In this document: positions 2,827 to 47,923 of the stretch, one piece after another
Numbering within the stretch: position 1 is the stretch's first letter
Layout of the letters: each line of letters begins with the position of its first letter
Assembly (NCBI GenBank): GCA_944389535.1
Contig: CALXMS010000003.1
Coordinates: 39,419-103,418 of the forward strand
Direction of reading: 5' to 3'
Length of the DNA stretch: 64,000 nucleotides
Source of the DNA: an uncultured Alphaproteobacteria bacterium
GTDB taxonomy: Bacteria; Pseudomonadota; Alphaproteobacteria; Rs-D84
Program-made: the position numbers and the translations under genes
Notes under the pieces: model-generated
What the model saw: only the letters and a program-made list of their open reading frames with translations
What the model was told of the DNA's origin: nothing
Databases searched by the model: none

Positions 2827-3732
2827 TTACCGACAAACTTCTTGAAGTATCTTACCGCGTTTTATTTCTAATCGCTTTTTATACGTTTCATAAACGGGGT
2901 TGTCTTCAAAAACTAAGCAATCACAATTTACAGGTAAATAAGCCAGTGTCTTAATATTATTCTTTGAACAATCAAGTATTTCTACTTTTTGGGGACAAAA
3001 CTTTAAATCTTTTAAAAGATTCCACCCGCAATCAAATTCCTCTAATTCCAGAGGCGCACCTTTTAAAGACCGTAATTTATTATTGCTACAATAATAATTG
3101 TTTACTTTTTGTGGTCCCCCGATCAAATTTGATAATCTATTATCTTCACAATAAAAAAAGTTTTTTACCTCTATTGGGGCGCCTTTTAAAGTACGCAATT
3201 TATTAAATGAACAATTATACACATTCACCTTTTCTGGTCCGCCTTCTAGAGTTATTAAATCATTAAAGGAACAATAAAAAATTTCCGTAAATTTTGGTGC
3301 CCCATTTAAAGTCTTCAAATGATTCCAGCAACAAACGTATTTTATTGTTTTAACGGGTCCACCAACCAAAGATTCTAATTGATTATGGTTACACAAAAAT
3401 TCTTCCACCTCTTTCGGCGCAAAGTTTAAAGACGACAAGGCATTATGGGAACAATCATATACTTCCGCTTTACTAGGTCCCCCTTCAAGACTAGTTAATA
3501 AATTTGAATCGCAATAGAAACGTTTTACCTCTTTTGGCGCACCTTTTAATGAAGTTAATTGATTATATGAACAATTAAAATAACTTAAACAAACACACGT
3601 CGAAAGATCTGGTAATTCAGTCAAACCCATTTTGGCAAGATTTATGCCTTCTTTTATAACAAAATTCTTTGGCAACTCAAATACATCATACTTTTTTCCG
3701 TCTTGATAAAAGTACCTGCTTGGTTCACCCAT
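2827..3732 (-). CDS. Leucine-rich-repeat protein with about 11 tandem 20-residue repeats. No signal peptide, so a possible eukaryote-like effector.
   Basis: The 301-aa ORF has a repeat unit xCsxNxLxSLxGaPxxVxxF, for example YCDSNLLTSLEGGPSKAEVY, DCSHNALSSLNFAPKEVEEF and YCSFNDLITLEGGPEKVNVY. The period is 20 aa (60 nt). The N-terminus is not hydrophobic. Confidence 0.7.
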   Translation of the reverse strand: MGEPSRYFYQDGKKYDVFELPKNFVIKEGINLAKMGLTELPDLSTCVCLSYFNCSYNQLTSLKGAPKEVKRFYCDSNLLTSLEGGPSKAEVYDCSHNALSSLNFAPKEVEEFLCNHNQLESLVGGPVKTIKYVCCWNHLKTLNGAPKFTEIFYCSFNDLITLEGGPEKVNVYNCSFNKLRTLKGAPIEVKNFFYCEDNRLSNLIGGPQKVNNYYCSNNKLRSLKGAPLELEEFDCGWNLLKDLKFCPQKVEILDCSKNNIKTLAYLPVNCDCLVFEDNPVYETYKKRLEIKRGKILQEVCR

Positions 3733-3747
3733 ATTTAAAACCCTACG

Positions 3748-5190
3748 TTATTTTTTATCCGATTTATTGCCCTTATTTTCCGATTTTTTATCGTCGGCTG
3801 CCTTGGTATCCTCAACCATATCCGCATCCAACGCAACTTCATCATCTGGCGTTAACGGAACTATGCTGGCCCGTTCGTTTAATTTTGACATAGCCCGAAC
3901 CATGTCCATGGCACGTTGTAATTGATAGTCCAAAGCGTCTTTTTCTTCATCTGTTAACTCTTTGTCATCATCCGACTTCTTTTTATCGTCTTTTTCAGCC
4001 TCTTCGTTTTTCAAAGCATTCTTAAACGAAGCTTCAGAGTACAAACTTTCCTTACGTTCCAAAACTTCCACTTTACTTTGCAGAACCTCTATATCTGGTG
4101 TTATACCCTCGTTCTGAATTGAACGCCCCGACGGAGTATAATAACGCGCAATTGTAATGTGTATTGCGGTACCATCACCCAAAGGTTTTTGCTGCTGAAC
4201 ACTGCCCTTACCGAAAGATTGAGACCCCATAACCAATGCTCGACCATTGTCTTGTAATGCACCGGCAACAATTTCAGACGCAGATGCAGAACCATGATTT
4301 ATTAATACGACCACAGGTTTACCGTTTGCTAAATCACCGGGTTTAGCAAAGTTTCGCTCAATATCAGTCTTATGCTTACCACGCGTAGAAACGATTTCTC
4401 CAGCATCTAAGAAGGCATCAGCAACGTCAATTGCCGCTGTCAAATAACCGCCTGGATTATTACGAACATCCAAAACATAACCTATAACGTCTTTCTTTTC
4501 TAATTTTTCTAGCGCTTTTTCTAACTCTTTTGCAGTTGTTGCCCCAAAATCAGATATACGAATATAACCTATTTTTTCGTCTGTATCTTCATCTGACCCA
4601 GCGATGGACTTTTCTTCATACTTTACAGATTCCACTTTTATTATCGCACGCTTTAAAGTTATAGTACGCGGTTCTTCCCCTTCCGAGATTATAGTAAGTT
4701 TAACTTTTGTACCCGGCCTACCTTTCATTTTTTTTACCGCTTGATTTAAGGTCATATCAAATACCTGTTCGTCATCAATATGAGTAATATAATCACCGGC
4801 CTTAATTCCTGCTTTATCAGCCGGGGTGTCATCAATAGGTGATATAACCCGAACCGCACCGCGATCGCTTGTAATCTGAATACCTAAACCACCGAATTCC
4901 CCCAATGATTTGTCATTGAATTCTTTGAAATCGTCCGCTGATAAATACGAAGAATGCGGATCCAAAGCCTGCAACATACCATTCATTGCAGCTTCTAACA
5001 TTTTCTTTTCGTCGGCTTCTTCAACGAAACTGTCACGCGCAGTTTCAAAAACCAAAGCCAACTTTTTTAACTGCTCATAAATCTGCTCGTCCGTCAAGTG
5101 TTCTACAGGTTCGTCTTTCTTTGCTTTATCTGCCCCAAAAGCCACGACTGGTACGATCAAAGCTATTAAAATCACCAACTTTTTTAACAT
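3748..5190 (-). CDS. ctpA: Carboxyl-terminal processing protease (S41 family with a PDZ domain), secreted, with a long charged C-terminal tail
   Basis: It has a signal peptide. The PDZ region reads GGLGIQITSDRGAVRVISPIDDTPADKAGIKAGDYI and the S41 catalytic region reads GYVLDVRNNPGGYL...INHGSASASEIVAGALQD. The last ~110 aa are rich in K, D and E. Confidence 0.9.
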   Translation of the reverse strand: MLKKLVILIALIVPVVAFGADKAKKDEPVEHLTDEQIYEQLKKLALVFETARDSFVEEADEKKMLEAAMNGMLQALDPHSSYLSADDFKEFNDKSLGEFGGLGIQITSDRGAVRVISPIDDTPADKAGIKAGDYITHIDDEQVFDMTLNQAVKKMKGRPGTKVKLTIISEGEEPRTITLKRAIIKVESVKYEEKSIAGSDEDTDEKIGYIRISDFGATTAKELEKALEKLEKKDVIGYVLDVRNNPGGYLTAAIDVADAFLDAGEIVSTRGKHKTDIERNFAKPGDLANGKPVVVLINHGSASASEIVAGALQDNGRALVMGSQSFGKGSVQQQKPLGDGTAIHITIARYYTPSGRSIQNEGITPDIEVLQSKVEVLERKESLYSEASFKNALKNEEAEKDDKKKSDDDKELTDEEKDALDYQLQRAMDMVRAMSKLNERASIVPLTPDDEVALDADMVEDTKAADDKKSENKGNKSDKK

Positions 5191-5356
5191 AAGCTTTCCT
5201 TTACAGTTAAATATACATAAATACGTTGTGAATAAGCATAAAACAAAAAGATAACCGCCGCAAGCGCGTTTTTATATAAATTTATTGAAAACGCCAAAAA
5301 ATATTGACAAATTTTATTTAAGGGCTATATTATATGATAAACACCAAGAGAAATAA

Positions 5357-6082
5357 ATGACCAAGACGCCGAAATTTTCAAAGCAAATTGAGGAAAATCG
5401 TGAAACGATATCTAAACTGTTATCTGGTGCTGATACAGTCAAACGTTTGAACAATTTTAATTGGTTACGGCACGAAATATCATATACAGAACCAAGAATT
5501 TTATTTTACGTCCCCAGCAAAGAACAACAACCATATTTGGACTATAATTCTATGAAAAATATTGGTGACGCATATGATTATATATTACAAAACCCGAAAA
5601 AAAACATAGATATATATGAAATTTGTAAAATACACAGCACAATATGTACGGGAACGCATATTCAGGGGGGATTATTTAGAACCAGCCCAAAAATAATAGA
5701 AATACAAGTTAATGGCCATCGATTACATGCACCAGACGAAACGCAAATTTTATCGAAGATGACCGAAATTATTTTCAAATTAAACGACCGTAATGTCTGC
5801 GTATTAAAACGCGCATTTCGTATTCATTACGATTTAATTATGTTGCAACCGTTTGATGACTTTAATAAGCGCACCGCACGACTTATTATGAATTGGGTAT
5901 TAATACAGAACGGATACAGACCTATAGTATTTAATCAACCAACGGATAAGCAAAAATATAAAGAAGCAATTACTGCTTGTGCAAATGGTCGACCTAAAGA
6001 ATATATATACTATATGTCATATTGTATGGCTAGAACGCAAAAACAAATCATATCTTTATTGAATAACTCTAAAATGTTATAG
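5357..6082 (+). CDS. Fic/Doc-fold protein with a non-canonical active-site motif, QPFDDFNKRTAR in place of HPFx(D/E)GNGRxxR
   Basis: The layout is Fic-like: HIQGGLFRTSP...VNGHRLHAPDETQILSKMTEII...AFRIHYDLIMLQPFDDFNKRTARLIMNWVLIQNGYRP. This aligns residue-for-residue with the canonical Fic core, which ends in ...IHPFxDGNGRxxRLLxNLxLxxxGYPP. The catalytic His is replaced by Gln, and GNG becomes FNK, which resembles the Doc NKR motif. Confidence 0.7.
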   Translation: MTKTPKFSKQIEENRETISKLLSGADTVKRLNNFNWLRHEISYTEPRILFYVPSKEQQPYLDYNSMKNIGDAYDYILQNPKKNIDIYEICKIHSTICTGTHIQGGLFRTSPKIIEIQVNGHRLHAPDETQILSKMTEIIFKLNDRNVCVLKRAFRIHYDLIMLQPFDDFNKRTARLIMNWVLIQNGYRPIVFNQPTDKQKYKEAITACANGRPKEYIYYMSYCMARTQKQIISLLNNSKML

Positions 6083-6090
6083 GTTTTTAC

Positions 6091-7017
6091 ATGGCTGATG
6101 AAATCATAAATCTTCCAAATCACGGTCGCGAGACATATGCAGTTTATTACGGGGATCGATTCGTATTGAAACGCCCTTTGCCGTACTTTAACGATGCCTC
6201 AAAAAAAGCATGGTTAAAAAAACAACATGACACAAAGCAAAAAATTGATGACATTCGAAAAGTCGGGAACCCTGTTTATAATATCCCAGAAATGATATTT
6301 ATAAATGATGAAGAATACCAGGTTCTAGAAGAACGCGCTTTGGGTGAACCGCTTACAAGACAACTTTACGACAATCTATCTAAACGTCAGCAATTTGAAA
6401 TCATAAATAGTTTAGGCAGTTTTCTTGTTGATATGAACGAACTGAAACCTATTGGACAAATTCAGAAATACAAAATTGCAAACGACATAAAGTTTTCTCG
6501 TTTAGACAGATTTATAGAAACCAAAATGTCTAATTGGTTCACAAAAAGCGAAGTGGTACAAATGGCCAAAGTTCGTGATGAGATAGGCTCTTTCGAATAC
6601 GAAACAAGACTTGCTTGGTCGCACGGCGATATAAATGCAGGCAACGTATTATATGATGTCGGTAACAATAAATTATCTTTTATAGATTTTGCTGAAACGG
6701 GTTATAAATATATTTATCGCGATATTTTTGCCCCGCTACAAGTAGAATTAGATATATATAAGCGAGTTTATGAAACATATTATCAATTACACAATAAAAA
6801 TTTATATGTGATGCCCAGCATAAAAAATGAAAACCTACGTGAAATTATGAAATATAGAATTTTAGCAGTCGTATTACGTCGCATAATAAAGGCATCCGAC
6901 GACCTACGCCGCAATCCTGCGTCACCAAAAAGTGAGGCAAATAATCTAGAAAAAATATTTTTCATTCGTCGTCAAATGCAAAAATTTGAAATCATAGAAA
7001 AAATGTTTTCAAAATAA
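6091..7017 (+). CDS. Protein with an aminoglycoside-phosphotransferase or protein-kinase-like fold
   Basis: It carries the Brenner-type catalytic motif SHGDINAGNVLYD and the metal-binding IDFAETG (DFG-like) motif. A Lys-containing strand, VLKRPLP, sits in the N-lobe. The gene starts 9 nt after the stop of the Fic-like gene, so the two are probably co-transcribed. Confidence 0.65.
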   Translation: MADEIINLPNHGRETYAVYYGDRFVLKRPLPYFNDASKKAWLKKQHDTKQKIDDIRKVGNPVYNIPEMIFINDEEYQVLEERALGEPLTRQLYDNLSKRQQFEIINSLGSFLVDMNELKPIGQIQKYKIANDIKFSRLDRFIETKMSNWFTKSEVVQMAKVRDEIGSFEYETRLAWSHGDINAGNVLYDVGNNKLSFIDFAETGYKYIYRDIFAPLQVELDIYKRVYETYYQLHNKNLYVMPSIKNENLREIMKYRILAVVLRRIIKASDDLRRNPASPKSEANNLEKIFFIRRQMQKFEIIEKMFSK

Positions 7018-7020
7018 GCA

Positions 7021-8124
7021 TTAATCTTCTTCTTTAAACAATCTAGCAGGGTCAACCGCTTTATTTCCGCGTCGAACTTCTAAATACATTTCTGGTTTAT
7101 CGGAACTCATTCTGCCGATAGGTTCACCGGCAAGAACATCTTGCCCCAACATAACATTTATTTCACCTAAATTGGTCATAACTGTATTATACCCATTTTT
7201 ATGAGACATAATTATTACCTTACCGAAACCTTTGAAACTATCGGCAAATTTAACTTCTCCGTCAGCGGGCGCCATTACCAAAGCATCTCCGCGGGCACGT
7301 ATATGCCATCCATCAGACTTTAGCCCCAAAGCAGTTTGTTCTGCGAAACGAACGACGACTTTTCCCCGAACTGGTTTATTTAATTTACGTAATGAAAAAC
7401 GTGAATCGGATGACATTTCTGAACTCCCTACGCCGGCAGATAATTCAGATATAGTTTTTGCGCGCGCCGACAAATCACGCAATTTTTTCTGTAAAGCAGT
7501 CTGCTGAGTACGTAACTTTTGGTTCTGCGCAGAACGAGTACGTAATAGTTTATCTAATTCATCTTTTTCATCGGCATAACGTTTTGCTGTGCGATCTAAT
7601 TTTTCCTTTTCGATGGCTCGTTCTTCACGAATTTTTGTAAGCTCTTTTATCTGATCTGTCGCGGTTTGTATTTCAGCATCAAAACTATCGGCCATTCCAG
7701 ACAATATAGCGGAAGTTAAAACATATTCACGCATATTTTCTGAATCAAAACTGGGATGTGATGCAACAAATAAAACACTAGCCGCCGCATCGGCAATTCG
7801 TTCCTGGTTTTTCTTTAACTCTTTCTCCAACTTTTTACGTTTTGCGTCAAGATCATTTATTTTCTTAGATACGGCACTACGTTGTTCTTCCAAAGTACTG
7901 ACACGATCTGCCGCCTTTACCAACTTCTTTTTCGTAGATTCTACTTCTTTATTAGACGTTTTTACTTGCTGTTCTAATTTTTTATTTTGTTGCTCTGTTT
8001 TTTTGATTTGTGCCTGAATATTTGCCAGTTCACTTGCCCCATAAGAATAATTCGGGGAATAGACAGTAAATATAAAAAATAAAATACTAATTATTTTTAA
8101 AAGATTGCGCGAAATTTTTTTCAT
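7021..8124 (-). CDS. M23/LytM-family peptidase with an N-terminal coiled-coil (EnvC/NlpD-like murein hydrolase or activator), secreted
   Basis: The signal peptide is MKKISRNLLKIISILFFIFTVYSPNYSYGA. A long K/E/Q-rich coiled-coil follows, then a C-terminal LytM domain (DGWHIRARGDALVMAPADGEVKFA...GFGKVIIMSHKNGYNTVM...GEPIG). The start is placed at the MKK codon at 8124. The ORF is open back to 8154. Confidence 0.8.
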   Translation of the reverse strand: MKKISRNLLKIISILFFIFTVYSPNYSYGASELANIQAQIKKTEQQNKKLEQQVKTSNKEVESTKKKLVKAADRVSTLEEQRSAVSKKINDLDAKRKKLEKELKKNQERIADAAASVLFVASHPSFDSENMREYVLTSAILSGMADSFDAEIQTATDQIKELTKIREERAIEKEKLDRTAKRYADEKDELDKLLRTRSAQNQKLRTQQTALQKKLRDLSARAKTISELSAGVGSSEMSSDSRFSLRKLNKPVRGKVVVRFAEQTALGLKSDGWHIRARGDALVMAPADGEVKFADSFKGFGKVIIMSHKNGYNTVMTNLGEINVMLGQDVLAGEPIGRMSSDKPEMYLEVRRGNKAVDPARLFKEED

Positions 8125-8176
8125 AGCCATAACATTGTAACAAAATAACCGCAAAAATCAAACAAGATACATATAA

Positions 8177-11596: not shown

Positions 11597-13438
11597 ATGC
11601 GATCATTTTACCAGATTTTTACTGCAGTTATATTTATCACGACGGCGACGTCAAATACACTTGCCGCCAAAGATCAAAGCAAACATGAAAAATGTTATGA
11701 CATAAATTATAAAAAATCTAATCCAGATAAATGCGCATCTTTTTTTAACGTTACGACAGCCCCATTGCTATCAGGCGCAACCGTTTTCGGCGGCGCGTTA
11801 GCCTTAATAAGTATCGCAAACGCAACAAATAACGCTTCAAGTAACCCAACAAAGTATTACCAACCCACTTTACCGACATATAATATGGTTGGCGGTGATG
11901 TAGACTCAATCAAACTGGCTGCAGCAACAAGTACACCAGAATACACGCAAAACATAAATCAATATAATGACATTCGCCTTGGTTATTCAATTGCAAGGGG
12001 TTATACAGGCCTAGGAACAAAGATAGCCATCCTAGACTCAGGTCCTAATACATTTCATGGTTCAGCAGTCGAAGCAATCGCTTCTGGTCCGATAGCAAAA
12101 AATGCAGTTGTTGAATCATATGATATTTTATACAAAAACGAGTTTCTTTCATACGACGAAATTGGAGATGTTATAGCAACAGCTTCTGATGCAGATATAT
12201 TTAACGCCAGTTGGTCCGTATCAATGCAAGCAAATAAACTTAGTTCTCGTAACCAATTAATAAAACTGACCGGTGAAAATTTTGTAAACCAAATATCTGC
12301 AGCGGCACAAAGAGGAGCTATATTTGTATGGGCCGCAGGTAATGACTATGGGGCTCAAAGCAGCGCATTATCTGCCCTTCCGATTGTTATGCCAGAACTA
12401 AACGGTCACTTTGTAAATGTCGTGGCATGGGACAGTGAAACTGGGGCATTAGCGGAATATAGTAACGCTTGTGGTATTACTAAGAACTGGTGTATAACCG
12501 CACCAGGAACAAATATAAATACTGAAAATAATACCATTGTCAGCGGTACAAGTTTTGCTGCGCCGATAGTATCTGCTGCTATCGCAGTAATACGAGAAGC
12601 TTTTCCTTATATGTCTTCTCAAGAAATCACAAGCCTTTTGTTTGAAACGGCTCGTGACTTAGGAGAACCAGGAATAGATGACATTTACGGTCATGGCATG
12701 CTAGATTTAGAACGCGCAACCCGCCCTGTTGGTGCCCCTCTTGTACCAATGGAAGATGGAACGATGCAAATACTACAACCAGCGCGAGTTTCAGGAACGC
12801 TTGCACATAATATATTAAGTGCATCCCCAAAATTGGCATACTTTGATAAATATGGTCGCGCCTTTAACGCGGATTTAAAAGACCTTATTTCAATTAAAAA
12901 TCCGGGAATAGGATTTAAAAGACTGCGCCAAAAATCTGATATAGAAATTATACGTATAAATAACTTTGAAGCAGGTTTAAAAAACAGTGATCTAATAGTT
13001 GGCGACGGTTTCTTAAATAAGCACGGATCAGATTGGTTAGGATTCATCGGAACAAACAATGAGTTTTCTATAGGTACATTCAATTTATTTCAACGGGCGC
13101 GACTATCTTTTGGTACCCCAAAAATTGATGAACAATCAATGATACAATCTTTTTCAAATATATATGCATTATCCTTTGATATAGGTGCTAAAATTACCGA
13201 CTGGTCTTTTGGAATATCAATTCCAGACACAATTATTAATGGAAGCATGGAAATGAGATTACCAATAGGACGGGCAAACGATGGGGCTATAATATACAAA
13301 GATTATAATATAAAAATGAACGGCAGACCACCTATTGAATATTCAATATCATATAAGTCTATTACTGCTAGTTTTGTTGATAATCCGTACGGTACAGATG
13401 AATTCTTTATTCTGACGCGTGGAAAACTTTATTTCTAA
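11597..13438 (+). CDS. Secreted subtilisin-like (S8) serine protease whose C-terminal domain may be an autotransporter-type beta-barrel
   Basis: There is a signal peptide. The catalytic Asp is in AILDSG, the His in HGS, and the Ser in GTSFAAPIVSAAIAV. The ~230-aa C-terminal region is rich in alternating hydrophobic and aromatic residues and ends ...RGKLYF, an OMP-like terminal aromatic. Confidence 0.75.
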   Translation: MRSFYQIFTAVIFITTATSNTLAAKDQSKHEKCYDINYKKSNPDKCASFFNVTTAPLLSGATVFGGALALISIANATNNASSNPTKYYQPTLPTYNMVGGDVDSIKLAAATSTPEYTQNINQYNDIRLGYSIARGYTGLGTKIAILDSGPNTFHGSAVEAIASGPIAKNAVVESYDILYKNEFLSYDEIGDVIATASDADIFNASWSVSMQANKLSSRNQLIKLTGENFVNQISAAAQRGAIFVWAAGNDYGAQSSALSALPIVMPELNGHFVNVVAWDSETGALAEYSNACGITKNWCITAPGTNINTENNTIVSGTSFAAPIVSAAIAVIREAFPYMSSQEITSLLFETARDLGEPGIDDIYGHGMLDLERATRPVGAPLVPMEDGTMQILQPARVSGTLAHNILSASPKLAYFDKYGRAFNADLKDLISIKNPGIGFKRLRQKSDIEIIRINNFEAGLKNSDLIVGDGFLNKHGSDWLGFIGTNNEFSIGTFNLFQRARLSFGTPKIDEQSMIQSFSNIYALSFDIGAKITDWSFGISIPDTIINGSMEMRLPIGRANDGAIIYKDYNIKMNGRPPIEYSISYKSITASFVDNPYGTDEFFILTRGKLYF

Positions 13439-16726: not shown

Positions 16727-16803
16727 AAAAGCAAGAAACTTTTATTTATAAAGTACTTGCTCGACTTTTCTAAAATTTGCTAACATTATTATACATAATA
16801 AGG

Positions 16804-19800
16804 ATGAAAGGATTTAAACTGCTTTTTGCCGGTTGCCTGACATTGTTAGCATTTGCCTTTTATAACTATGCAAATGCCGACGATTCGGTTGATGCTGCGC
16901 GCGCGGCAACGCGCCGTAATACCTCAACGACAGTCGTAAGGCAACAAACAGATATATCTAACGAACAACAGCAACAAAGTCTATCTGGAACTTCGCGTTC
17001 TACCAACCTATCGTCTGTTGGAACGCGCGATCGTAATACCACAACGGCAACAAGGAATAATGCTATTTCACGCGAAATAGGAACGCGTACCTCATCTAAC
17101 GAAACCAATCAATCAGTTTCTGCTCGTACAACTTCAAACGTAACGTCACGTTCTGTAACAGATACGACGAATGTTATATCTTCCCCTTCACGATCCACCA
17201 CACCAAGAAGCACAACAACTATATCCAGGACTGGTACTACCCCTACGCGCAATGCTATAACTTCATCGACAACTGCACGTACAGCTGCGCCAACTGTTTC
17301 ACGCAATGCATCTGTTAATCGTTCAGGCAGCGCAACAAATACAACTGCCATTATTTCTCGTGCCGCAAATACAACGTCTTCTACAACCACATCTCGTGCA
17401 GGAACTTTGACGGCAGAAGAAATAATAAATAGAGACTATACGACGTGTCGCGAAGTCTATTATAGCTGTATGGACGAATTCTGTGCGAATAAAGACAGCC
17501 AATTAAAACGCTGTGCTTGTTCTTCGCGGGTAAACGAATTTGACTCAATTAAAGAGCAGCTTGCACAAGTTGAAGATAAAATGTTAGATTTTAATCAACG
17601 CTTATTAACTGTCAACATGGATAAAGAAGATGCAGAGGCAATATTTCAGGCCACAGAAGGTGAACTGGCTTTCCAGCAAGAAGATAAATCCGAATCAAAA
17701 AAATTATTAGACGAAATTGCGAACAAACTAAATACAACTTTTGACACCAGTACTTTTGATTCTAATCTATCACCCATATCTCTTTCATTAAACGTGGACG
17801 CCGCATTTGATAGCGTTGATTCTTTAGCCGGCGCATCTACAACAACAAAATCTGGTACGGCACTATACAGCGCAGCATTACCAATATGCAGGGAAATGGC
17901 ACTAGAAGTATGTACTCAAGACGAACTAGACATCATTGAAAGTGGTTATCAAATGGCCATAGAACAGGATTGCAATACGGTTGCCAAAGCATATGAAACA
18001 CAACAAGATTTGGCGCGGGAACAAATTCGCGAAGGAAGTGCTCTTTTAGATATGTCCCGTTTAGATATATATCAGAAACGTAACTCTGATGACATACTTA
18101 CATGTAAAAAGAAAATGTTAGATATGCTTACGAACACGGCAGTATGCGGAACAGATTTACAGAAATGCTTGGACATCAGTGGACAGTATATCGATCCATC
18201 TACGGGTGAGGCAATCCTTACGGTTAATTTAGTTAATTTGGGTAACCTGATAACACGTCCCAGCGCAGATCAAACATGGACGAACACACCTGGGAATGAA
18301 AAGTTCGTATCATATTTAAATTCAAAAAAGCTATTTTTAGAATCCGCAACGGAAAACTGTCAAGATATCGCAGATTATGTATGGGACGAATTTATAGAAG
18401 ATGCATTAGCCCAAATAAAATTAGCTCAAGAAAGCAAATTGGAAGAAGTTAGACAAAGTTGTACAACATTGACAACACAATGTTTAACAGAATCGGCGGA
18501 ATCATTAGAAGATTTTGATGCTCGTGCACTATCTATTTTCGGCGTAGAAGCCGATAAGACAGTAAAACAAATGTGTTCAGAGGTTCAAACCGCTTGTACT
18601 GCATTGCTTGATACCGTTGATGGAGGATATGACTGGAGTACCGGTATAACAGAAATTGCCACAGATAAAACCTATGAAACTATATTACAAACATGCCGAG
18701 AAGTTGGACGAGCATGCATAATACAATCTTGTAAATCTATATCTGGTAATTTTGGTTTATGCGAAAACATTCAAACTTCTGTTAACAGAAAATCTATAAT
18801 TAACCGTACAGCATGTTGGGAAGAGGTACTTGAATGTGTTGAAAGTGCTGGTATAGATTCAATAAACAAAATAACAGAACTGCAGCTAAATCATTTGGAT
18901 GAATTTAATAGGTCCTTTTACACAGAGTTATATGGTGTCTATACCGCACAAGATATAACTAATGACGAATTAAATGCTGGGTTTGATATCTCTCAATCAT
19001 GTATTATCGGCGATAACGGTAATTGCATATATGATATATGCGCAAATGAATGCGGTTTTAACGCAGAAACTTCAACATACAGCAAAATTACATCTAACGA
19101 CTGTCAGGTATGTCGTTTAGCCGAAAAAGTTTGGGGTAATTGTGAGGCTCATCCGACGGCCAACTTACAGGCAAGCGAATCGCATAACAAAATTAAAATA
19201 CCAATTGATAGCACACAAGATACTTTATTATCTTGGTTTGCAAAAAATACAAATACAGAAAATGCAGACGATAGCTGTCGTGATACTTCTTGTGGCCCGG
19301 GATACATATCTTCTTGGGATTCAGAAAAACAAACTTCTGTATGTGTACCGCGCTCTCAGTTATCAGATGACGGTCTAATCTGTTCTTCAGATACCTATTG
19401 GCGCTTAAATATAAACGGATATAACAATTGTTGTCGTACGTCCAGTGGGTCAACTGGTGGCGCACGCGATGGTTTTGGAAATTGCTGTTTAGGTTCAACC
19501 ATCGGTGCAGAAACGAATACCATAGCAGGTGTTAATTGGGAAACAACAACAGGATATTGGAACCGTAACGCTGTTTCAACTGAACTGCCAAGAAAGACAG
19601 ATGAAGTACAGGGAACTTTGGCGCCGAATAAAAACGGAGGGCTCTGTTTACCGTCTACCTCAAAATTTGTTATGGCATTTCCATTAACGGACTCATATTA
19701 TGGTGACTCTGGTATCGGGTTCTTGTTCTGTACTGGAACAATACGTGATATAACCAATCAAACATCTACTTTCCCAAGCGGACAAACGGTACAATGTAAT

Positions 19801-20013
19801 GGTGATTATATAATAGTTACTCAAGACGGCAGATATTTGTCACCACAATACAAAGATTCTGATGCAACATCAATAACGACTTTCTATAGAGAACAAGAAG
19901 ATGTCGGTGGTGTTTGCATAAATACATATTCAGACTCGTCATGGTCTTGGATAAAAGATTCTGATCAACAATGTGATTTGCAGACCCCGACTAACTGGTT
20001 AATACAAAATTAA
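16804..20013 (+). CDS. Large secreted cysteine-rich protein, member 1 of a paralogous family. It has an N-terminal Thr/Arg/Ser/Asn-rich low-complexity region.
   Basis: The signal peptide is MKGFKLLFAGCLTLLAFAFYNYANA. An alternative upstream ATG lies at 16777. A ~200-aa T/R/S/N-rich region follows. The family signature is YYSCMDEFCANKDSQLKRCACSS. Further shared blocks are VCGTDLQKCLD and ENCQDIADYVWDEF. There are more than 60 Cys in total. Confidence 0.8.
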   Translation: MKGFKLLFAGCLTLLAFAFYNYANADDSVDAARAATRRNTSTTVVRQQTDISNEQQQQSLSGTSRSTNLSSVGTRDRNTTTATRNNAISREIGTRTSSNETNQSVSARTTSNVTSRSVTDTTNVISSPSRSTTPRSTTTISRTGTTPTRNAITSSTTARTAAPTVSRNASVNRSGSATNTTAIISRAANTTSSTTTSRAGTLTAEEIINRDYTTCREVYYSCMDEFCANKDSQLKRCACSSRVNEFDSIKEQLAQVEDKMLDFNQRLLTVNMDKEDAEAIFQATEGELAFQQEDKSESKKLLDEIANKLNTTFDTSTFDSNLSPISLSLNVDAAFDSVDSLAGASTTTKSGTALYSAALPICREMALEVCTQDELDIIESGYQMAIEQDCNTVAKAYETQQDLAREQIREGSALLDMSRLDIYQKRNSDDILTCKKKMLDMLTNTAVCGTDLQKCLDISGQYIDPSTGEAILTVNLVNLGNLITRPSADQTWTNTPGNEKFVSYLNSKKLFLESATENCQDIADYVWDEFIEDALAQIKLAQESKLEEVRQSCTTLTTQCLTESAESLEDFDARALSIFGVEADKTVKQMCSEVQTACTALLDTVDGGYDWSTGITEIATDKTYETILQTCREVGRACIIQSCKSISGNFGLCENIQTSVNRKSIINRTACWEEVLECVESAGIDSINKITELQLNHLDEFNRSFYTELYGVYTAQDITNDELNAGFDISQSCIIGDNGNCIYDICANECGFNAETSTYSKITSNDCQVCRLAEKVWGNCEAHPTANLQASESHNKIKIPIDSTQDTLLSWFAKNTNTENADDSCRDTSCGPGYISSWDSEKQTSVCVPRSQLSDDGLICSSDTYWRLNINGYNNCCRTSSGSTGGARDGFGNCCLGSTIGAETNTIAGVNWETTTGYWNRNAVSTELPRKTDEVQGTLAPNKNGGLCLPSTSKFVMAFPLTDSYYGDSGIGFLFCTGTIRDITNQTSTFPSGQTVQCNGDYIIVTQDGRYLSPQYKDSDATSITTFYREQEDVGGVCINTYSDSSWSWIKDSDQQCDLQTPTNWLIQN
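16890..17420 (+). repeat. Low-complexity, degenerate short-period coding repeats (T/R/S/N-rich) at the N-terminus of family member 1
   Basis: The protein sequence shows recurring TxR/SRxxT units (TRRNTSTT, TRDRNTTTATRNN, TRTSSNET, SRSTTPRSTTT...). The compositional bias also creates long spurious antisense ORFs at 16866-17390. Confidence 0.6.
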
Positions 20014-28222: not shown

Positions 28223-30199
28223 TTATTTTACTTTTTCTAACACGAATTTCTTACCTTCTGCTATTTTCTTCATTAGGTCATTTCTAAAATATATTTGTGT
28301 TTTATTATCAATATCTAATCGCATCATATCTAATAACTGATGAACACTTTTTGCATACACATAGTAACCAGAAAAAATATTTCTACTTTTAGGTAATCTT
28401 AAGCGCAGATTTGTATCGTACACTAACCACATAGGTGTTGAAGGGTAGTCACTATTATTTTCTAATATTCCATGTATCGCCAAAACCGTATCATCACAAA
28501 ATAATTTAATCTCTGTATTTATATGTCGTGGTAATAATTTATTCCCATTCACCCACACTTCGTTATACACACCATTTAATGTTGTTTTTATATGCTTTAT
28601 TTTTATTCTTAGTAAACCATCTTCACTATAATCTATAATATTTTCTGGCGTAACATTAGGCTTCGAAAGCTTTTCATCTGCCAGCTGTGGTATAGATTCT
28701 TTTTTATTATTTGTAGCAAATTCTTCAATTGTTCCTTTGCCTAAATTTTCTATTTTATACCTTTGATTTGCTTCTTTTAAAAGACTGTTAATTAACTTAT
28801 TGTTAGATTCTATGCTACTTAATTCACCTATTTCAATCAACGGGCATATAAGGTATCCACAATTCTTAGATATAATTACTGTGTTTGTGTTTACGCCTTT
28901 TGCATTGATAACACCAGCTTCTGCTGGTACATTTTTTACCCTGCGATTAGTATCATAAGGAGAAATCACAATATAAGAACACGCACTGGGTGATTCCAAA
29001 AAAAGCTCATGACTTTTATCCATATATTTAATTATTTTAACGCCTGATTTAGATTCCTGTAAAACATTTCCAGTTTTTAAATTTATAACATATAACACAA
29101 AATTATTTACCGACCTTTTCTTTCTTACAATGGCAAAGTTTGATACCTCATCAAAAAAGACTAAATGATAAGGAACATTAGAACCGCTTAATAATCTAGC
29201 CGTTGTATATTCTTTTCCGAAACATAAATTATATTTGCCTTTACCAGTTAACACAGAGAATAATGGTACTTTTAAACCAACATCTAAATATTGTTGTTGG
29301 ACCATTTTTGGTTGTTTTTTTAAACTTTTTTTGGGTTTACGTATAAAAATTTGATTAGCTGCATCATAAGATGGAAATCTTTTAATCAATTCGTTTTGTA
29401 AAGATACATCTATTGGCATTCCATACTTCTTACAACGATAAAGTGCTACTTTTATATAAGCATCATTCGCTGTCGACCAATCCTTTTTCTTTTTGTGTCT
29501 TATCCGTATAAATCTTTGATTTATCGGATCATATGAAGAAAATCTTTTAGATAGTTCCGTATTTAAACTTTCATCTATAACTTTTTTATTACTTTTAAGA
29601 TTATAAAATAACTTTTTTAAACGATCGTCATCAATTATGCTTAAGTCTTTTTTTTGGAAAATTCTGTTAAACTTTTTGTTTTCTTTGTCATAACTTGGAA
29701 ACCTTTTTATAAGCTCTGTTTGTAGCGCATCTTCTATAGGTTTCCCAAATCTTTTCCTAGTATATAAAATACATTTTAAATTATCGTCACTTAACTTTGT
29801 CCAATCTTTTACCCTTGGTGCACGACGAAGCGTACGCGTTTTTTTATCATACTCAGGAAAACGTTTATGTAACTCTTGGCTTAATTCATCTTCGATTTTT
29901 AAACCGCGCTTATACCGATAATGATATGACGCACGTAAGCTTACATCAGACATTAATGACCACTCATATTGAGTTTTTCTACGGCTGACATATTTTCCTT
30001 CATTTTGTACGTTGAGTACGCTATTTTTTAAGGAAGGTTTAACAATACTTTTAACATATGCAGAAATCAAACTTATTGATAACAAAGGGGCAGACATTAT
30101 TATAGCTTTTTCTAATTCTGACACCGCCTTTACAACAGCTTGATCTTTTAATAAACTTTCAACAATATAAGTTGCTATAGATTCTTCTGTATTTTTCAT
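28223..30199 (-). CDS. Hypothetical protein with four tandem ~54-aa repeats built around an ELxKRFPSYD motif
   Basis: The repeats are SQELHKRFPEYDKKTRTLRRAPRVKDW..., QTELIKRFPSYDKENKKFNRIFQKKDL..., NTELSKRFSSYDPINQRFIRIRHKKKKDW... and QNELIKRFPSYDAANQIFIRKPKK.... There is no signal peptide. One possible N-terminal TM helix is IIMSAPLLSISLISAYVKSIV. Confidence 0.55.
   Translation of the reverse strand: MKNTEESIATYIVESLLKDQAVVKAVSELEKAIIMSAPLLSISLISAYVKSIVKPSLKNSVLNVQNEGKYVSRRKTQYEWSLMSDVSLRASYHYRYKRGLKIEDELSQELHKRFPEYDKKTRTLRRAPRVKDWTKLSDDNLKCILYTRKRFGKPIEDALQTELIKRFPSYDKENKKFNRIFQKKDLSIIDDDRLKKLFYNLKSNKKVIDESLNTELSKRFSSYDPINQRFIRIRHKKKKDWSTANDAYIKVALYRCKKYGMPIDVSLQNELIKRFPSYDAANQIFIRKPKKSLKKQPKMVQQQYLDVGLKVPLFSVLTGKGKYNLCFGKEYTTARLLSGSNVPYHLVFFDEVSNFAIVRKKRSVNNFVLYVINLKTGNVLQESKSGVKIIKYMDKSHELFLESPSACSYIVISPYDTNRRVKNVPAEAGVINAKGVNTNTVIISKNCGYLICPLIEIGELSSIESNNKLINSLLKEANQRYKIENLGKGTIEEFATNNKKESIPQLADEKLSKPNVTPENIIDYSEDGLLRIKIKHIKTTLNGVYNEVWVNGNKLLPRHINTEIKLFCDDTVLAIHGILENNSDYPSTPMWLVYDTNLRLRLPKSRNIFSGYYVYAKSVHQLLDMMRLDIDNKTQIYFRNDLMKKIAEGKKFVLEKVK
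29330..29900 (-). repeat. About four tandem repeats of ~162 nt (54 aa) within the coding sequence of the hypothetical protein
   Basis: They were derived from the protein-level repeats. Coordinates are approximate. Confidence 0.45.
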
Positions 30200-45367: not shown

Positions 45368-47881
45368 TTACATAACTATATCTTCACAGACCTCTTCTGA
45401 CACGTTAGTCGTACAACTAGTATTGCGATTATTATGAAACCAGCTACTGCTGCCTGTTGTTTTGCAATCTTGAGATGTGGTTTGTGTACAAATATGACAA
45501 GTTCTTGTATCACGACTAAATATTGCTCTAACGGTTTTCGTCATACCGGCATTATCCATACTAGAACCGCCAAGGTAACCACTGTTTGTAAATGTAACAC
45601 CATCTGTTTGCAATACACCTGCCCCACCCTTAGCCAAGTCTTCCGTTGTCAAACCAGAACCAACGTCATAACTAATTGCGTATGGTGGTGTTAACGGCGT
45701 AGACGCAGTAATAGCCCCACCACCAGCGCCACCGTTTTCGGCAATTTTCTGACACATATATTGCGCCAAATCTGTAGAAGCATTCTTTGTTGCTTCAGCA
45801 ATTTCATAATTAAGCTTCGTATTATAGTTATCCTGAGCTTTACGCAACGCAGCCACTGCTATTTGCATTTTTACCTGATTTAATAAATTCGGGAAGCGAC
45901 CAACAGTCGATGCATTTGCCTCACCTGTAATTTGCTCCAAACTGCGCCCACTTACACAATATTGAATTTCAGGGTCGCTTTCTATCATTTCTATTGTGCG
46001 ATTTATTGTACCAGCAATATTATTCAGCTCTTCTTCTATAGAAGAAATTATACCGTCATAATTAGCAACACCTACGTTATTTTCTTTTACTTTCGCAAGG
46101 TATTCTTCAATGCCTATTTCACCCGGTTCCAAAGTAACCGTGTTACCGCTGCCGTCTTCCATTTTAGTCTGACCGCTGGCATCTCCCATCTTGATACTAC
46201 CGAAAGATATCATACCCGTAACGCGATATGTTGTACCATCTTTCTGAGAACGTAAAGACCCCGTACCGATCGTATCATCAGCTGCGAATCTATTACAATC
46301 TGTGGTACTGCCGCAAACCTCTGCCATCTTTTTATCAACGATATTCTGGCACTGTTCCATCATTGCATTATCAATATTCAGATATAATCCCATCAACATA
46401 CTATCTAAATCGTCCATGGAAAAATTAGGGTTATTTGCTTTACATACAACCAAACTATCAATCGGACATATGTCATGAATATAGTTATAATCCATCCCTA
46501 TACAATTTTCAAAGTTAGGACCACAACGAGTATCTGCAGTAAAGCAATCTTTTACTTCTTGGGTACACGCATCAACGCGCATTGCCGCAAGCTTATCTTC
46601 AACGTACCCCCAAATTAAAGGTTCCATTCTTTCACAAGGGTCTATTTCTACCTTACAAAAACTACGCGCCATTTCAGGTCTAGATAAGCAAGCATCCATC
46701 GTTGCAACGCCTTTACCCGCAATATCGTCACGACACGCAGTCTGAATACAGTCAGAAATCGTCGTTAAACAAGATTGACGGAACTTAGATTCTGCCTGTA
46801 TTTCTGCAACCTTTATTGTTGGTGCCGCCTCACGCAGAAAGTTCGGCCAGACCAAATCACGTACAGCAACACACTGATCTAAAACATTTTCACATATTGG
46901 ACGCTTTGTATTTAATATGTTCATCGTAGACGTAGTAATGTCATAAGTATCAACAGTTTCAACTGTCGTCCCGGCAGTACTTGTTGCGGTGTTATTCTGC
47001 ATATTTTCCATCGCAATTGTCGCAACGCAATTTTCCCAATCCTCGCCACAGGCATCATCGGTCTGCATACACTTCTTAAATTCTACCATGCACTGTCCAA
47101 GGTCATACTTATTTGCACTTTCAAAACTTTCTTGTAACGCTGCACGTACTTCAGATTCTGCTGCGGCAAGTTCGTTTTCAGCATTATCACGCTGTTGAGA
47201 TAAAGAATTTTTATACCCCAAACAATCTGATGTTATCTGACGAGAATAAAGCTGCTGTAAAAATACAATATCTCCAGAACAAGATTCTGGAACCTGATTC
47301 AAACATAAATTATTAGCCGCGTTATACAATTCGCTGCCGATCATATCTGCCATATCCGCCACAGTACTTTGTAACTCTGCTGAATCATCTTCATAAATAC
47401 TGTTATTATTAAATATTGCCAATAAGTCTGCACGCTTTTGAGCTTTCTGCTTTTCTTCTGTTAACTGCCCCGATGCCAAAATATTACCATCAGCGTCATA
47501 TTGACGAGTACCAGTAAAAACTATATCTGCATTAGCGCCAGCTTTAACACGCTCAACCTCTTCTGTACGAAGACGATTCGCTTCGTCCAGTATAGACTGA
47601 ATAGACGCCATTTCTTGATTATATTCTATTATATTATCACTGCATGTGCATGCACCACCGCTGGCATTATCAGTAATACAAAACTGATCCATGCAACCAA
47701 AATACGCATCGTAACACGCCTGATCATATAAACCAGTTGCTTCAATTTTTGTTCTTACTGTCGTTCCCTGTTGAATCGCGGATTGACGAGAATTCTTACT
47801 GGTAGTAAGAGCATAAGAGTTTGTAACAACCCCAACCACCAAATAAGTAAATAACGAAACAAACATAATTTTATTTCTCAT
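45368..47881 (-). CDS. Large secreted cysteine-rich protein, member 2 of the paralogous family
   Basis: The signal peptide is MRNKIMFVSLFTYLVVGVVTNSYA. The SD GGGGGA lies 8 nt upstream, and the ORF is open to 47899. The family signature reads CYDAYFGCMDQFCITDNASGGACTCSDN. It shares CENVLDQCVAVRD and CGxxFENC blocks with member 3. The C-terminus reads ...VCEDIVM. Confidence 0.8.
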   Translation of the reverse strand: MRNKIMFVSLFTYLVVGVVTNSYALTTSKNSRQSAIQQGTTVRTKIEATGLYDQACYDAYFGCMDQFCITDNASGGACTCSDNIIEYNQEMASIQSILDEANRLRTEEVERVKAGANADIVFTGTRQYDADGNILASGQLTEEKQKAQKRADLLAIFNNNSIYEDDSAELQSTVADMADMIGSELYNAANNLCLNQVPESCSGDIVFLQQLYSRQITSDCLGYKNSLSQQRDNAENELAAAESEVRAALQESFESANKYDLGQCMVEFKKCMQTDDACGEDWENCVATIAMENMQNNTATSTAGTTVETVDTYDITTSTMNILNTKRPICENVLDQCVAVRDLVWPNFLREAAPTIKVAEIQAESKFRQSCLTTISDCIQTACRDDIAGKGVATMDACLSRPEMARSFCKVEIDPCERMEPLIWGYVEDKLAAMRVDACTQEVKDCFTADTRCGPNFENCIGMDYNYIHDICPIDSLVVCKANNPNFSMDDLDSMLMGLYLNIDNAMMEQCQNIVDKKMAEVCGSTTDCNRFAADDTIGTGSLRSQKDGTTYRVTGMISFGSIKMGDASGQTKMEDGSGNTVTLEPGEIGIEEYLAKVKENNVGVANYDGIISSIEEELNNIAGTINRTIEMIESDPEIQYCVSGRSLEQITGEANASTVGRFPNLLNQVKMQIAVAALRKAQDNYNTKLNYEIAEATKNASTDLAQYMCQKIAENGGAGGGAITASTPLTPPYAISYDVGSGLTTEDLAKGGAGVLQTDGVTFTNSGYLGGSSMDNAGMTKTVRAIFSRDTRTCHICTQTTSQDCKTTGSSSWFHNNRNTSCTTNVSEEVCEDIVM

Positions 47882-47923
47882 CACTTTATCCCCCGCCATG
47901 CCATAAAAGACGGCATATAAACC

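Follow-up and report, generated by a model that had tools for sequence, protein, structure and literature searches.

A gene encoding a Fic-fold protein and a gene encoding a phosphotransferase lie side by side in a 64,000-nucleotide stretch of contig CALXMS010000003.1, from an uncultured alphaproteobacterium of the order Rs-D84. This whole stretch is referred to as the window. The first gene (5357–6082, plus strand) encodes a protein of 241 amino acids (aa), assigned here to a variant, derived from class II Fic proteins, in which Gln takes the place of the catalytic histidine and the motif includes the tripeptide NKR (Gln/NKR). The second gene (6091–7017, plus strand) encodes a 308-aa phosphotransferase of the APH type, which features a eukaryotic-like kinase fold and is called the kinase below. 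Between the TAG that ends the Fic gene and the start codon (ATG) of the kinase gene lie 8 nucleotides (nt; 6083–6090), not 9 nt as given in a preliminary description made from the letters of the window.

The Fic fold proposed in that description was found both in profile searches and in a structural model. The open reading frame (ORF) at 5357–6082 matches the Pfam Fic family (PF02661) at residues 84–182 (E=2.4e-12; 47.9 bits, cutoff 24), and the closest solved relatives by sequence are human FICD (E=1.8e-12), C. elegans Fic-1, BT_2513 and CdFic. A model made with AlphaFold from 27 family sequences, with a predicted local distance difference test score (pLDDT) of 90.9, has a helical core of about ten helices and a beta-hairpin at residues 113–124. 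For this model, Foldseek ranks FICD and class II Fic proteins from bacteria highest (template modelling score, TM, 0.69–0.78). Against the PDB, 51 matches were obtained at E<=0.001, and all the 50 listed are Fic-domain proteins. The hairpin (5693–5728, plus strand; DSSP strands at residues 113–118 and 121–124 of the model) corresponds to the flap, the target-docking element of Fic enzymes. The flap is followed by a conserved HAP triplet, and Pro126 is invariant in the family alignment A1.

The active-site motif, QPFDDFNKRTAR, spans residues 164–175 (5846–5881, plus strand). Its position was set by family alignments and by alignment to FICD, in which HPFIDGNGRTSR lines up with it, and the 64-kb window contains no other motif of the Fic type. 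Compared with HPFx(D/E)GNGRxxR, His is changed to Gln, Gly6 to Phe and Gly8 to Lys, and the Phe, Asp, Asn and both Arg residues are kept. The two replacements named in the preliminary description, catalytic His by Gln (Gln164) and GNG by FNK (Phe169, Lys171), are thus those seen in the FICD alignment. Judged by its residues, the protein has the acidic residue in position 5, Asn in position 7, Arg in position 9 and the second Arg, in position 12, of canonical AMPylating Fic proteins, and lacks their His1 and Gly6/Gly8.

A search of 5.8 billion proteins identified 223 family clusters at 90% identity, with members of about 241 aa, which where named are called only 'Fic family protein' and come from metagenome-assembled genomes (MAGs) of Alphaproteobacteria. 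QPFxDxNKR is found in 115 of the 120 top cluster representatives. One genome per species was also scanned; 174 genomes, all of gut or rumen Alphaproteobacteria, encode a relative, and 80 loci were kept for all locus counts given here. Gln occupies motif position 1 in 79 of these 80 species-level loci. The recurrence of Gln in 115/120 representatives and 79/80 loci rules out a sequencing artefact or a single-nucleotide polymorphism, either of which the preliminary description regarded as fatal to its proposal. The Doc-like Lys in position 8 (K171), to which it also drew attention, is present and invariant throughout the family. Position 6 varies (F/Y/C/A/L/M).

To collect deeper relatives, 1.84 billion cluster representatives were scanned with a profile, which gave 39 clusters (50% identity) at E<1e-30. 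Wherever the motif region is present, these read Q-[PA]-F-x-D-x-N-K-R, save P0267, a canonical two-domain HPFxDGNGR protein. Below a sharp drop in score, canonical HPFxDGNGR proteins follow. Seven residues are invariant down to 19–25% identity (Q164, N170, K171, R172, R175, Y201, Y216), and seven more are nearly invariant in the same alignment (E45, H93, G105, R108, H157, F166, D168). The conserved positions of the Gln/NKR family are those of its canonical neighbours, except for the H to Q and G to K changes. That Gln is invariant, together with all the other active-site residues, speaks for an active site in use. Substitution patterns place both the Fic-like gene and the kinase gene under purifying selection: the ratio of nonsynonymous to synonymous divergence (dN/dS), measured pairwise in close species pairs, is 0.05–0.11 for the Fic gene and 0.04–0.08 for the kinase gene, next to 0.03–0.07 for the neighbouring ctpA gene. 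A nested lineage (cluster P0113) carries HPFDDYNKR in all its 15 members, and is Doc-like at the His and NKR positions, with Tyr in position 6. This lineage suggests that His and Gln are interchangeable in the Fic-like scaffold. At its locus in the genome set (L065, Fic gene at 5929–6723) the kinase is absent, and an M23 peptidase gene, which elsewhere flanks the pair, is inverted.

Sequence and model place the Fic-like protein among the descendants of class II (FICD-like) Fic proteins. Class II members, such as FICD/HYPE, Shewanella SoFic, Clostridioides CdFic and Bacteroides BT_2513, feature the same fold and domain order, and have the flap, the HY...PF.D.N.R..R residues and the downstream R/D..Y residues in common with it. 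Of the 71 closest canonical neighbours in the profile scan, 58 have a SNAIEG-type motif in their N-terminal part. Unlike class II proteins, the family has Gln for His, Lys in position 8 and Phe/Tyr/Cys in position 6, and the protein lacks an intact (S/T)xxxE(G/N) motif and TPR or wHTH accessory domains. This inhibitory helix motif, which the preliminary description had proposed to look for, is missing at the homologous N-terminal position in the protein itself as in the 120 representatives, the 80 loci and 35 deep members. The nearly invariant Glu45 (codon 5489–5491, plus strand) may be either the former inhibitory Glu or the Glu of a downstream 'LTxxET' box. HMMER opens a 4-residue gap and then pairs Glu45 with the Glu of SNAIEG. 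By contrast, hhalign sets 'SYTEP' on the 'LTxxET' box, and tblastn against a relative in a viral contig (SGKIEGN...TYVETE) likewise puts Glu45 on the ET box, an alignment which implies deletion of about 12 residues with the inhibitory motif. On these alignments Glu45 is more likely the Glu of the box, and under neither of them does the inhibitory motif appear intact. As read from these comparisons, the active-site motif is a hybrid, in which class II Fic ancestry is combined with Gln and a convergent Doc-like Lys.

The resemblance to Doc is restricted to a few residues. Doc proteins measure about 125 aa. Their motif is HxFx(D/N)(A/G)NKR, and Lys in position 8 inverts ATP binding, turning the Fic fold into a kinase; they have six helices and no beta-hairpin flap, and are always accompanied by the Phd antitoxin (PMC4177925). 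The extended Doc motif, Hxxx..NKRxx[!R], is without the second Arg (PMC4454073). NKR and the Asp in position 5 are common to phage P1 Doc and the Fic-like protein. Doc keeps the essential His where the latter has Gln, and the Fic-like protein differs further in size (241 aa), in having about ten helices, a flap and the second Arg, and in lacking a Phd gene. Its score against the TIGR01550 DOC_P1 model is 18.8 bits, below the cutoff of 38.65, and no Doc chain is found among the 21 PDB sequence matches at E<=1. Assignment to Doc was rejected on these two results, on the flap and the ten or so helices, and on the Q/Phe motif. The term 'Doc-like' used in the preliminary description suits the NKR tripeptide, and is not appropriate to the fold, the size, the flap, the second Arg or the nearest relatives, which are class II Fic proteins.

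The Gln/NKR motif itself is already known. In 2015 Khater and Mohanty noted computationally a 45-member clade, D2, with the consensus Qx[F/Y]x[D/E][G/V]NKR, inside the Doc subfamily, and argued that its members are probably not dead, as retention implies function (PMC4454073). Like the family described here, clade D2 features Gln for His plus NKR in single-domain proteins found in bacteria only (PMC4454073). D2, known here by its published consensus, has Gly or Val in position 6, so the Phe/Tyr/Cys of the Fic-like family departs from it there; FICD-like length and architecture, and class II proteins as nearest neighbours, also set the family apart. Other Gln/NKR Fic proteins are scattered, and include a QPFxDANKR group (about 265 aa), QPFIDTNKR, QPFGDNNKR (in a Rickettsiales MAG) and QPFIDCNKR (in a viral contig). 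None of the distant Gln/NKR Fic genes has a kinase beside it. Literature searches returned no description of a Fic and APH operon, and no study of Gln-type Fic proteins beyond PMC4454073.

Two of the distant genes were looked at in their surroundings. The viral or mobile contig (IMGVR_UViG_2563367162_000001), the only one with a distant relative among 2.9 million, encodes at 4851–5609 a 252-aa Fic protein with QPFIDCNKR and an intact SGKIEGN. This protein indicates that Gln/NKR exists outside the clade and independently of the loss of the inhibitory helix. The third ORF upstream of it (1849–2670) looks like a ParA-type partition ATPase (Walker-type GGVAKTT). The other gene, P0344 (QPFFDANKR; locus L087, 8001–8795), directly follows accB-accC, has no kinase, and is convergent with a cluster of ATP-grasp, 7TM-transglutaminase and RimB-like genes. 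A search with P0344 returned only P0344 itself and one weak match.

The product of the second gene in the window matches Pfam APH (PF01636; 1.6e-9, 38.3 bits, cutoff 23.2), and the best match of its profile in the PDB is APH(2'')-Ia (2.4e-5). The model has a pLDDT of 86.9, and its top Foldseek matches are all APH(2'') enzymes (TM 0.41–0.50). Conservation was assessed in an alignment of 22 sequences (A3) as over 120 cluster representatives. Lys27 (codon 6169–6171, plus strand), the ATP-anchoring beta-3 Lys, is invariant in A3 and conserved in the representatives. Invariant in A3 and conserved in the representatives are also H178, D180 and N185 in the catalytic loop HGDINAGN (residues 178–185; 6622–6645, plus strand), and I198, D199 and F200 in the metal-binding, DFG-like segment IDFAETG (residues 198–204; 6682–6702, plus strand). 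With all these residues in place, the protein looks like a competent APH-type kinase, in keeping with the kinase motifs read in the preliminary description. Matches to the Choline_kinase, OspG and Bud32 models are all below their thresholds. The modelled architecture, with a helical C-lobe, resembles that of small-molecule kinases. APH(2'')-Ia and APH(2'')-IVa have the APH fold, the helical C-terminal lobe, HxDxxxxN and IDF in common with the kinase; identity to them is only 14–19%, the kinase family is lineage-specific and vertically inherited, and, unlike in APH(2''), nothing points to antibiotic resistance.

The two genes are predicted to form one transcription unit in this window, as previously supposed, on the evidence of a single near-consensus promoter, the 8-nt spacer and the lack of an intergenic terminator. 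The sigma-70-type promoter (5304–5333, plus strand) consists of TTGACA and TATATT or TATTAT, 16 or 18 nt apart, lies about 25 nt before the Fic ATG, and matches the consensus at 11 of 12 positions. TTGACAAA-N17-TATATT is kept upstream of the Fic gene in nearly all of 30 aligned related loci. No convincing terminator was found between the Fic and kinase genes of the window. The pair is flanked by two envelope-protease genes, oriented alike and opposite in strand to it: ctpA, for an S41 C-terminal processing peptidase (3748–5190, minus strand; Pfam Peptidase_S41, 4.9e-62), is divergent from the Fic-like gene, and a gene for an EnvC-like coiled-coil M23 peptidase (7021–8154, minus strand; Pfam Peptidase_M23, 2e-18) is convergent with the kinase gene. 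Farther out, beyond these two genes, lie tyrS, tsf and rpsB. The GC content is 33% in the Fic-kinase pair vs 37–42% in the flanks.

Other features of the window are reported for completeness. In the ctpA-Fic intergenic region, CCGCAAGCGCGTTTTT (5258–5273) is part of a recognisable, CCGCAAGCCCGTTTTT-like element, present in most of the 30 aligned related loci, in variants such as ATTCAACACGATTTTT; the element may be part of the ctpA promoter or leader. Next to ctpA, at 2827–3732 (minus strand), is a gene for a 301-aa leucine-rich-repeat (LRR) protein, weakly similar to SspH2 and internalin J in its repeats. This gene varies in copy number and presence, with several tandem matches in two loci (L045, L046) and none in many. 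Pfam searches gave nothing at E<=1e-5 for five ORFs of 658–1078 aa (16777–20013, plus; 28223–30199, minus; 45368–47899, minus; 47924–50050, minus; 50560–53046, plus); for a genome of about 1 Mb, this is a high proportion of giant orphan proteins. An autotransporter with the Chlamydia polymorphic-membrane-protein (PMP) repeat is encoded at 53856–56135 (minus strand), and a 613-aa S8 subtilase at 11597–13438 (plus strand). Both are predicted to be exposed at the surface or secreted, as would suit a cell-associated lifestyle.

The 80 kept loci all belong to MAGs of Alphaproteobacteria from gut, rumen or faeces, including several Candidatus Enterousia species, and one resides on a closed chromosome of 958,618 bp. 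Genomes of the order Rs-D84 measure about 0.75–1 Mb, and a partner-dependent lifestyle has been proposed for them (PMC12306168). No gene accompanies the Fic-like gene more constantly than ctpA, which is divergently adjacent to it in 73/80 loci and adjacent with the kinase in between in 3/80, so that the Fic gene, with or without kinase, occupies the same ctpA-side site in 76 of the 80 loci. Protein identity across the ctpA-site loci ranges from 84% down to 44%. The M23 gene is found in the flank of 46/80 loci. The kinase adjoins the Fic gene in 62 loci: downstream on the same strand, in the operon arrangement, in 50; downstream on the opposite strand in 9; upstream in 3. It is absent from the other 18, and in five of these the M23 gene directly follows the Fic gene (clean absence). 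The kinase is therefore a frequent but dispensable neighbour. Two contigs labelled otherwise also show the alphaproteobacterial arrangement ctpA, Fic, kinase: CAVGNU010000010.1 (labelled Bacteroides fragilis), and JAMPEH010000007.1 (labelled Muribaculaceae), where PFOR, M23, tyrS and tsf genes are present too. Given this synteny, both contigs are almost certainly mis-binned in the public assemblies.

Synteny at ctpA across the clade marks the Fic gene as an old, near-universal gene of the clade, and the comparison of loci describes the locus as chromosomal and vertically inherited there. The horizontally acquired module envisaged in the preliminary description does not fit the fixed ctpA site in 76/80 loci and the single distant relative in viral contigs. 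Since the site is fixed clade-wide at 84–44% identity, any acquisition predates the clade. Recent horizontal acquisition was rejected also because the GC content is only about 4–6 points under that of the flanks.

Within this vertical frame the Fic gene has occasionally been exchanged. Over the loci, divergence is correlated with that of CtpA at r=0.70 for the kinase and r=0.44 for Fic. When the loci L050 and L064 are compared, protein identity is 93% for CtpA, 87% for the kinase and 50% for Fic; DNA identity falls from about 87% to 45–55% within the Fic ORF, to rise again in the kinase gene, and synonymous divergence (dS) is 2.3 in the Fic gene and 0.9–1.1 in the flanks. The island of divergence is seen in L050, L063 and L064, at about 5800–6750 (homologous to window 5357–6082), and at least four such incongruences between Fic and flanks occur among the 80 loci. 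The raised dS, together with the local drop in identity, points to allele replacement by recombination, rather than to accelerated protein evolution. Fast positive selection was considered as a cause of the Fic divergence and rejected: between L050 and L064 dS is saturated too, and dN/dS is low elsewhere.

Exchange of alleles at a fixed locus resembles what is seen in some defence genes, and a toxin-antitoxin (TA) or anti-phage defence module, in which the kinase would modulate a toxin resembling Doc or SoFic, would also agree with the Doc-like NKR tripeptide. The probability left to such a module is very small. Weak PADLOC matches (SoFic, 44 bits; candidate system PDC-S04, 53 bits), for which PADLOC gives no curated cutoff, could be counted in its favour; the SoFic match reflects general Fic homology, and has no defence-island context. 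The scores against TIGR01550 and the PDB disagree with a Doc toxin, as do about ten helices and a flap vs the six helices and no flap of Doc (PMC4177925). Both SoFic-type and Doc toxins require the catalytic His which is missing here. Among the ORFs of the window neither a Phd-like nor any other small partner adjoins the Fic gene, whose upstream neighbour is the divergent ctpA. A toxin-antitoxin-like unit, one of the options of the preliminary description, is hence not sustained, and pairing of the Fic protein with the kinase in this sense was rejected: the Fic gene persists at the 18/80 loci without kinase, the partner is inverted in 9/80, and the two proteins do not co-vary. Moreover, the gene is a syntenic core gene of essentially one clade, not found in islands, with one distant relative in a viral contig.

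A secreted or contact-delivered effector pair, acting on a host or partner cell, is improbable as well. Many Fic proteins are effectors, and the best solved sequence relative is the eukaryotic FICD. The genome surroundings encode the SspH2/internalin-like LRR protein, the autotransporter with Chlamydia PMP repeats and very large orphan proteins, and the lifestyle proposed for Rs-D84 is partner-dependent (PMC12306168). Local divergence of the Fic gene with occasional allele replacement would fit an effector too. On the other side, neither the Fic nor the kinase protein showed an evident signal peptide or a translocation domain of known type when the sequences were read by eye, and no secretion-system gene is adjacent to the pair, a statement on the neighbourhood, as no genome-wide search for secretion systems was made. 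Within allele lineages the dN/dS of Fic is as low as that of ctpA, and the position of the locus is fixed in the core genome.

Two readings are closer to the evidence. One regards the Fic-like protein as a pseudoenzyme, whose pocket and flap would do no more than bind a ligand, either a nucleotide or a peptide carrying a phosphoryl or nucleotidyl group, and which could serve as a sensor, reader or regulatory adaptor, for instance for the kinase or for the envelope proteases encoded nearby. It is a possible reading, somewhat doubtful, and ranks just below the altered enzyme described further on. The general base is missing in 79/80 species and in all deep members, the autoinhibitory motif, needed only to restrain AMPylation, is lost, and flap and phosphate-binding residues are kept. 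Adjacency to ctpA is constant (76/80 loci). AvrB of Pseudomonas syringae provides a precedent, as its Fido fold, devoid of the catalytic His motif, works with protein kinases; it interacts with RIPK and MPK4, and direct catalysis has not been seen in vitro (PMC4177925). AvrB differs in having a wholly different nine-residue segment, where the Fic-like family keeps 6/9 core motif positions plus the second Arg, and in being a type III effector, with no secretion signal evident in the Fic-like protein. In pseudoenzymes several catalytic residues usually drift; here Asp, Asn, Lys, both Arg and Gln are fixed down to about 20% identity, and for the Gln clade D2 Khater and Mohanty argued likewise (PMC4454073). 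Fic and kinase do not co-vary (in L050 vs L064 identity is 87% for the kinase and 50% for Fic), which argues against a tight, specific Fic-kinase complex.

The other reading, tentatively preferred on sequence and on analogy to known Fic proteins, is an altered enzyme, dependent on Mg-nucleotide, whose chemistry would proceed without a general base. Three coupled changes mark the protein: an invariant Gln in place of His, an invariant Lys in position 8, and loss of the N-terminal autoinhibitory motif. The flap, the putative Mg-binding Asp168, the predicted anion-hole residues Asn170 and Arg172, and the second Arg175 are retained. The active site would still be in use, able to bind Mg-nucleotide or another pyrophosphate-containing ligand. 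The ligand would probably be held in an inverted orientation, since Lys is in position 8, as in Doc. The reaction could be a phosphoryl or nucleotidyl transfer which needs no general base, with water as acceptor or else an already anionic group, a phosphate or a carboxylate, which the kinase encoded beside it might produce. Gln164 would orient the nucleophile, or the transferred phosphoryl group, rather than deprotonate. The kinase would be an independent, dispensable enzyme of the small-molecule type, acting in the same pathway in most lineages, and neither an antitoxin nor an obligate subunit of the Fic-like protein.

Several points weigh against the altered enzyme. Gln is unable to serve as a base, and we know of no studied Fic or Doc enzyme in which His is not needed for normal activity. 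The same pattern of conservation would be expected of a nucleotide-binding pseudoenzyme. The link to the kinase is facultative, missing at 18/80 loci including the clean absences, and distant Gln/NKR Fic genes without kinase leave a substrate-product relation between the two proteins without direct support. The orientation of the ligand is extrapolated from Doc, a protein without the second Arg kept by the Fic-like family.

A bolder form of the altered enzyme, in which the Gln/NKR proteins would catalyse a reaction new to the Fic fold, is speculative and rather unlikely. If the adjacent APH-type kinase makes a phosphate monoester, base-independent transfer from an inverted Mg-bound nucleoside triphosphate (NTP) could pyrophosphorylate or nucleotidylate it. 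In another version, Gln could position a water molecule for Ras-like NTP hydrolysis, and the Fic protein would be a switch.

To the extent covered by the literature searched, what appears new here is a combination of sequence features: a scaffold of class II, Gln together with Lys, loss of the inhibitory motif, the status of core gene in reduced genomes, and a frequent APH-type neighbour. The finding is tempered by a motif known since 2015, by a facultative kinase link and by a function not assignable from sequence alone. Fic enzymes are defined by their catalytic histidine. Here a whole family has fixed Gln at this position, with all other active-site residues kept, and has acquired the Lys of Doc and parted with the autoinhibitory motif. 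Such a family offers a natural test of a Fic pocket devoid of its general base, and the proteins are small, soluble-looking and easily synthesised, so that the question can be addressed directly in vitro. Genomes of about 1 Mb keep few non-essential genes, and near-universal retention of the Fic gene in them suggests a role in a lifestyle presumably partner-dependent. Were the transfer variant true, the kinase and the Fic-like protein would form a two-step pathway, retained in these genomes for that lifestyle.

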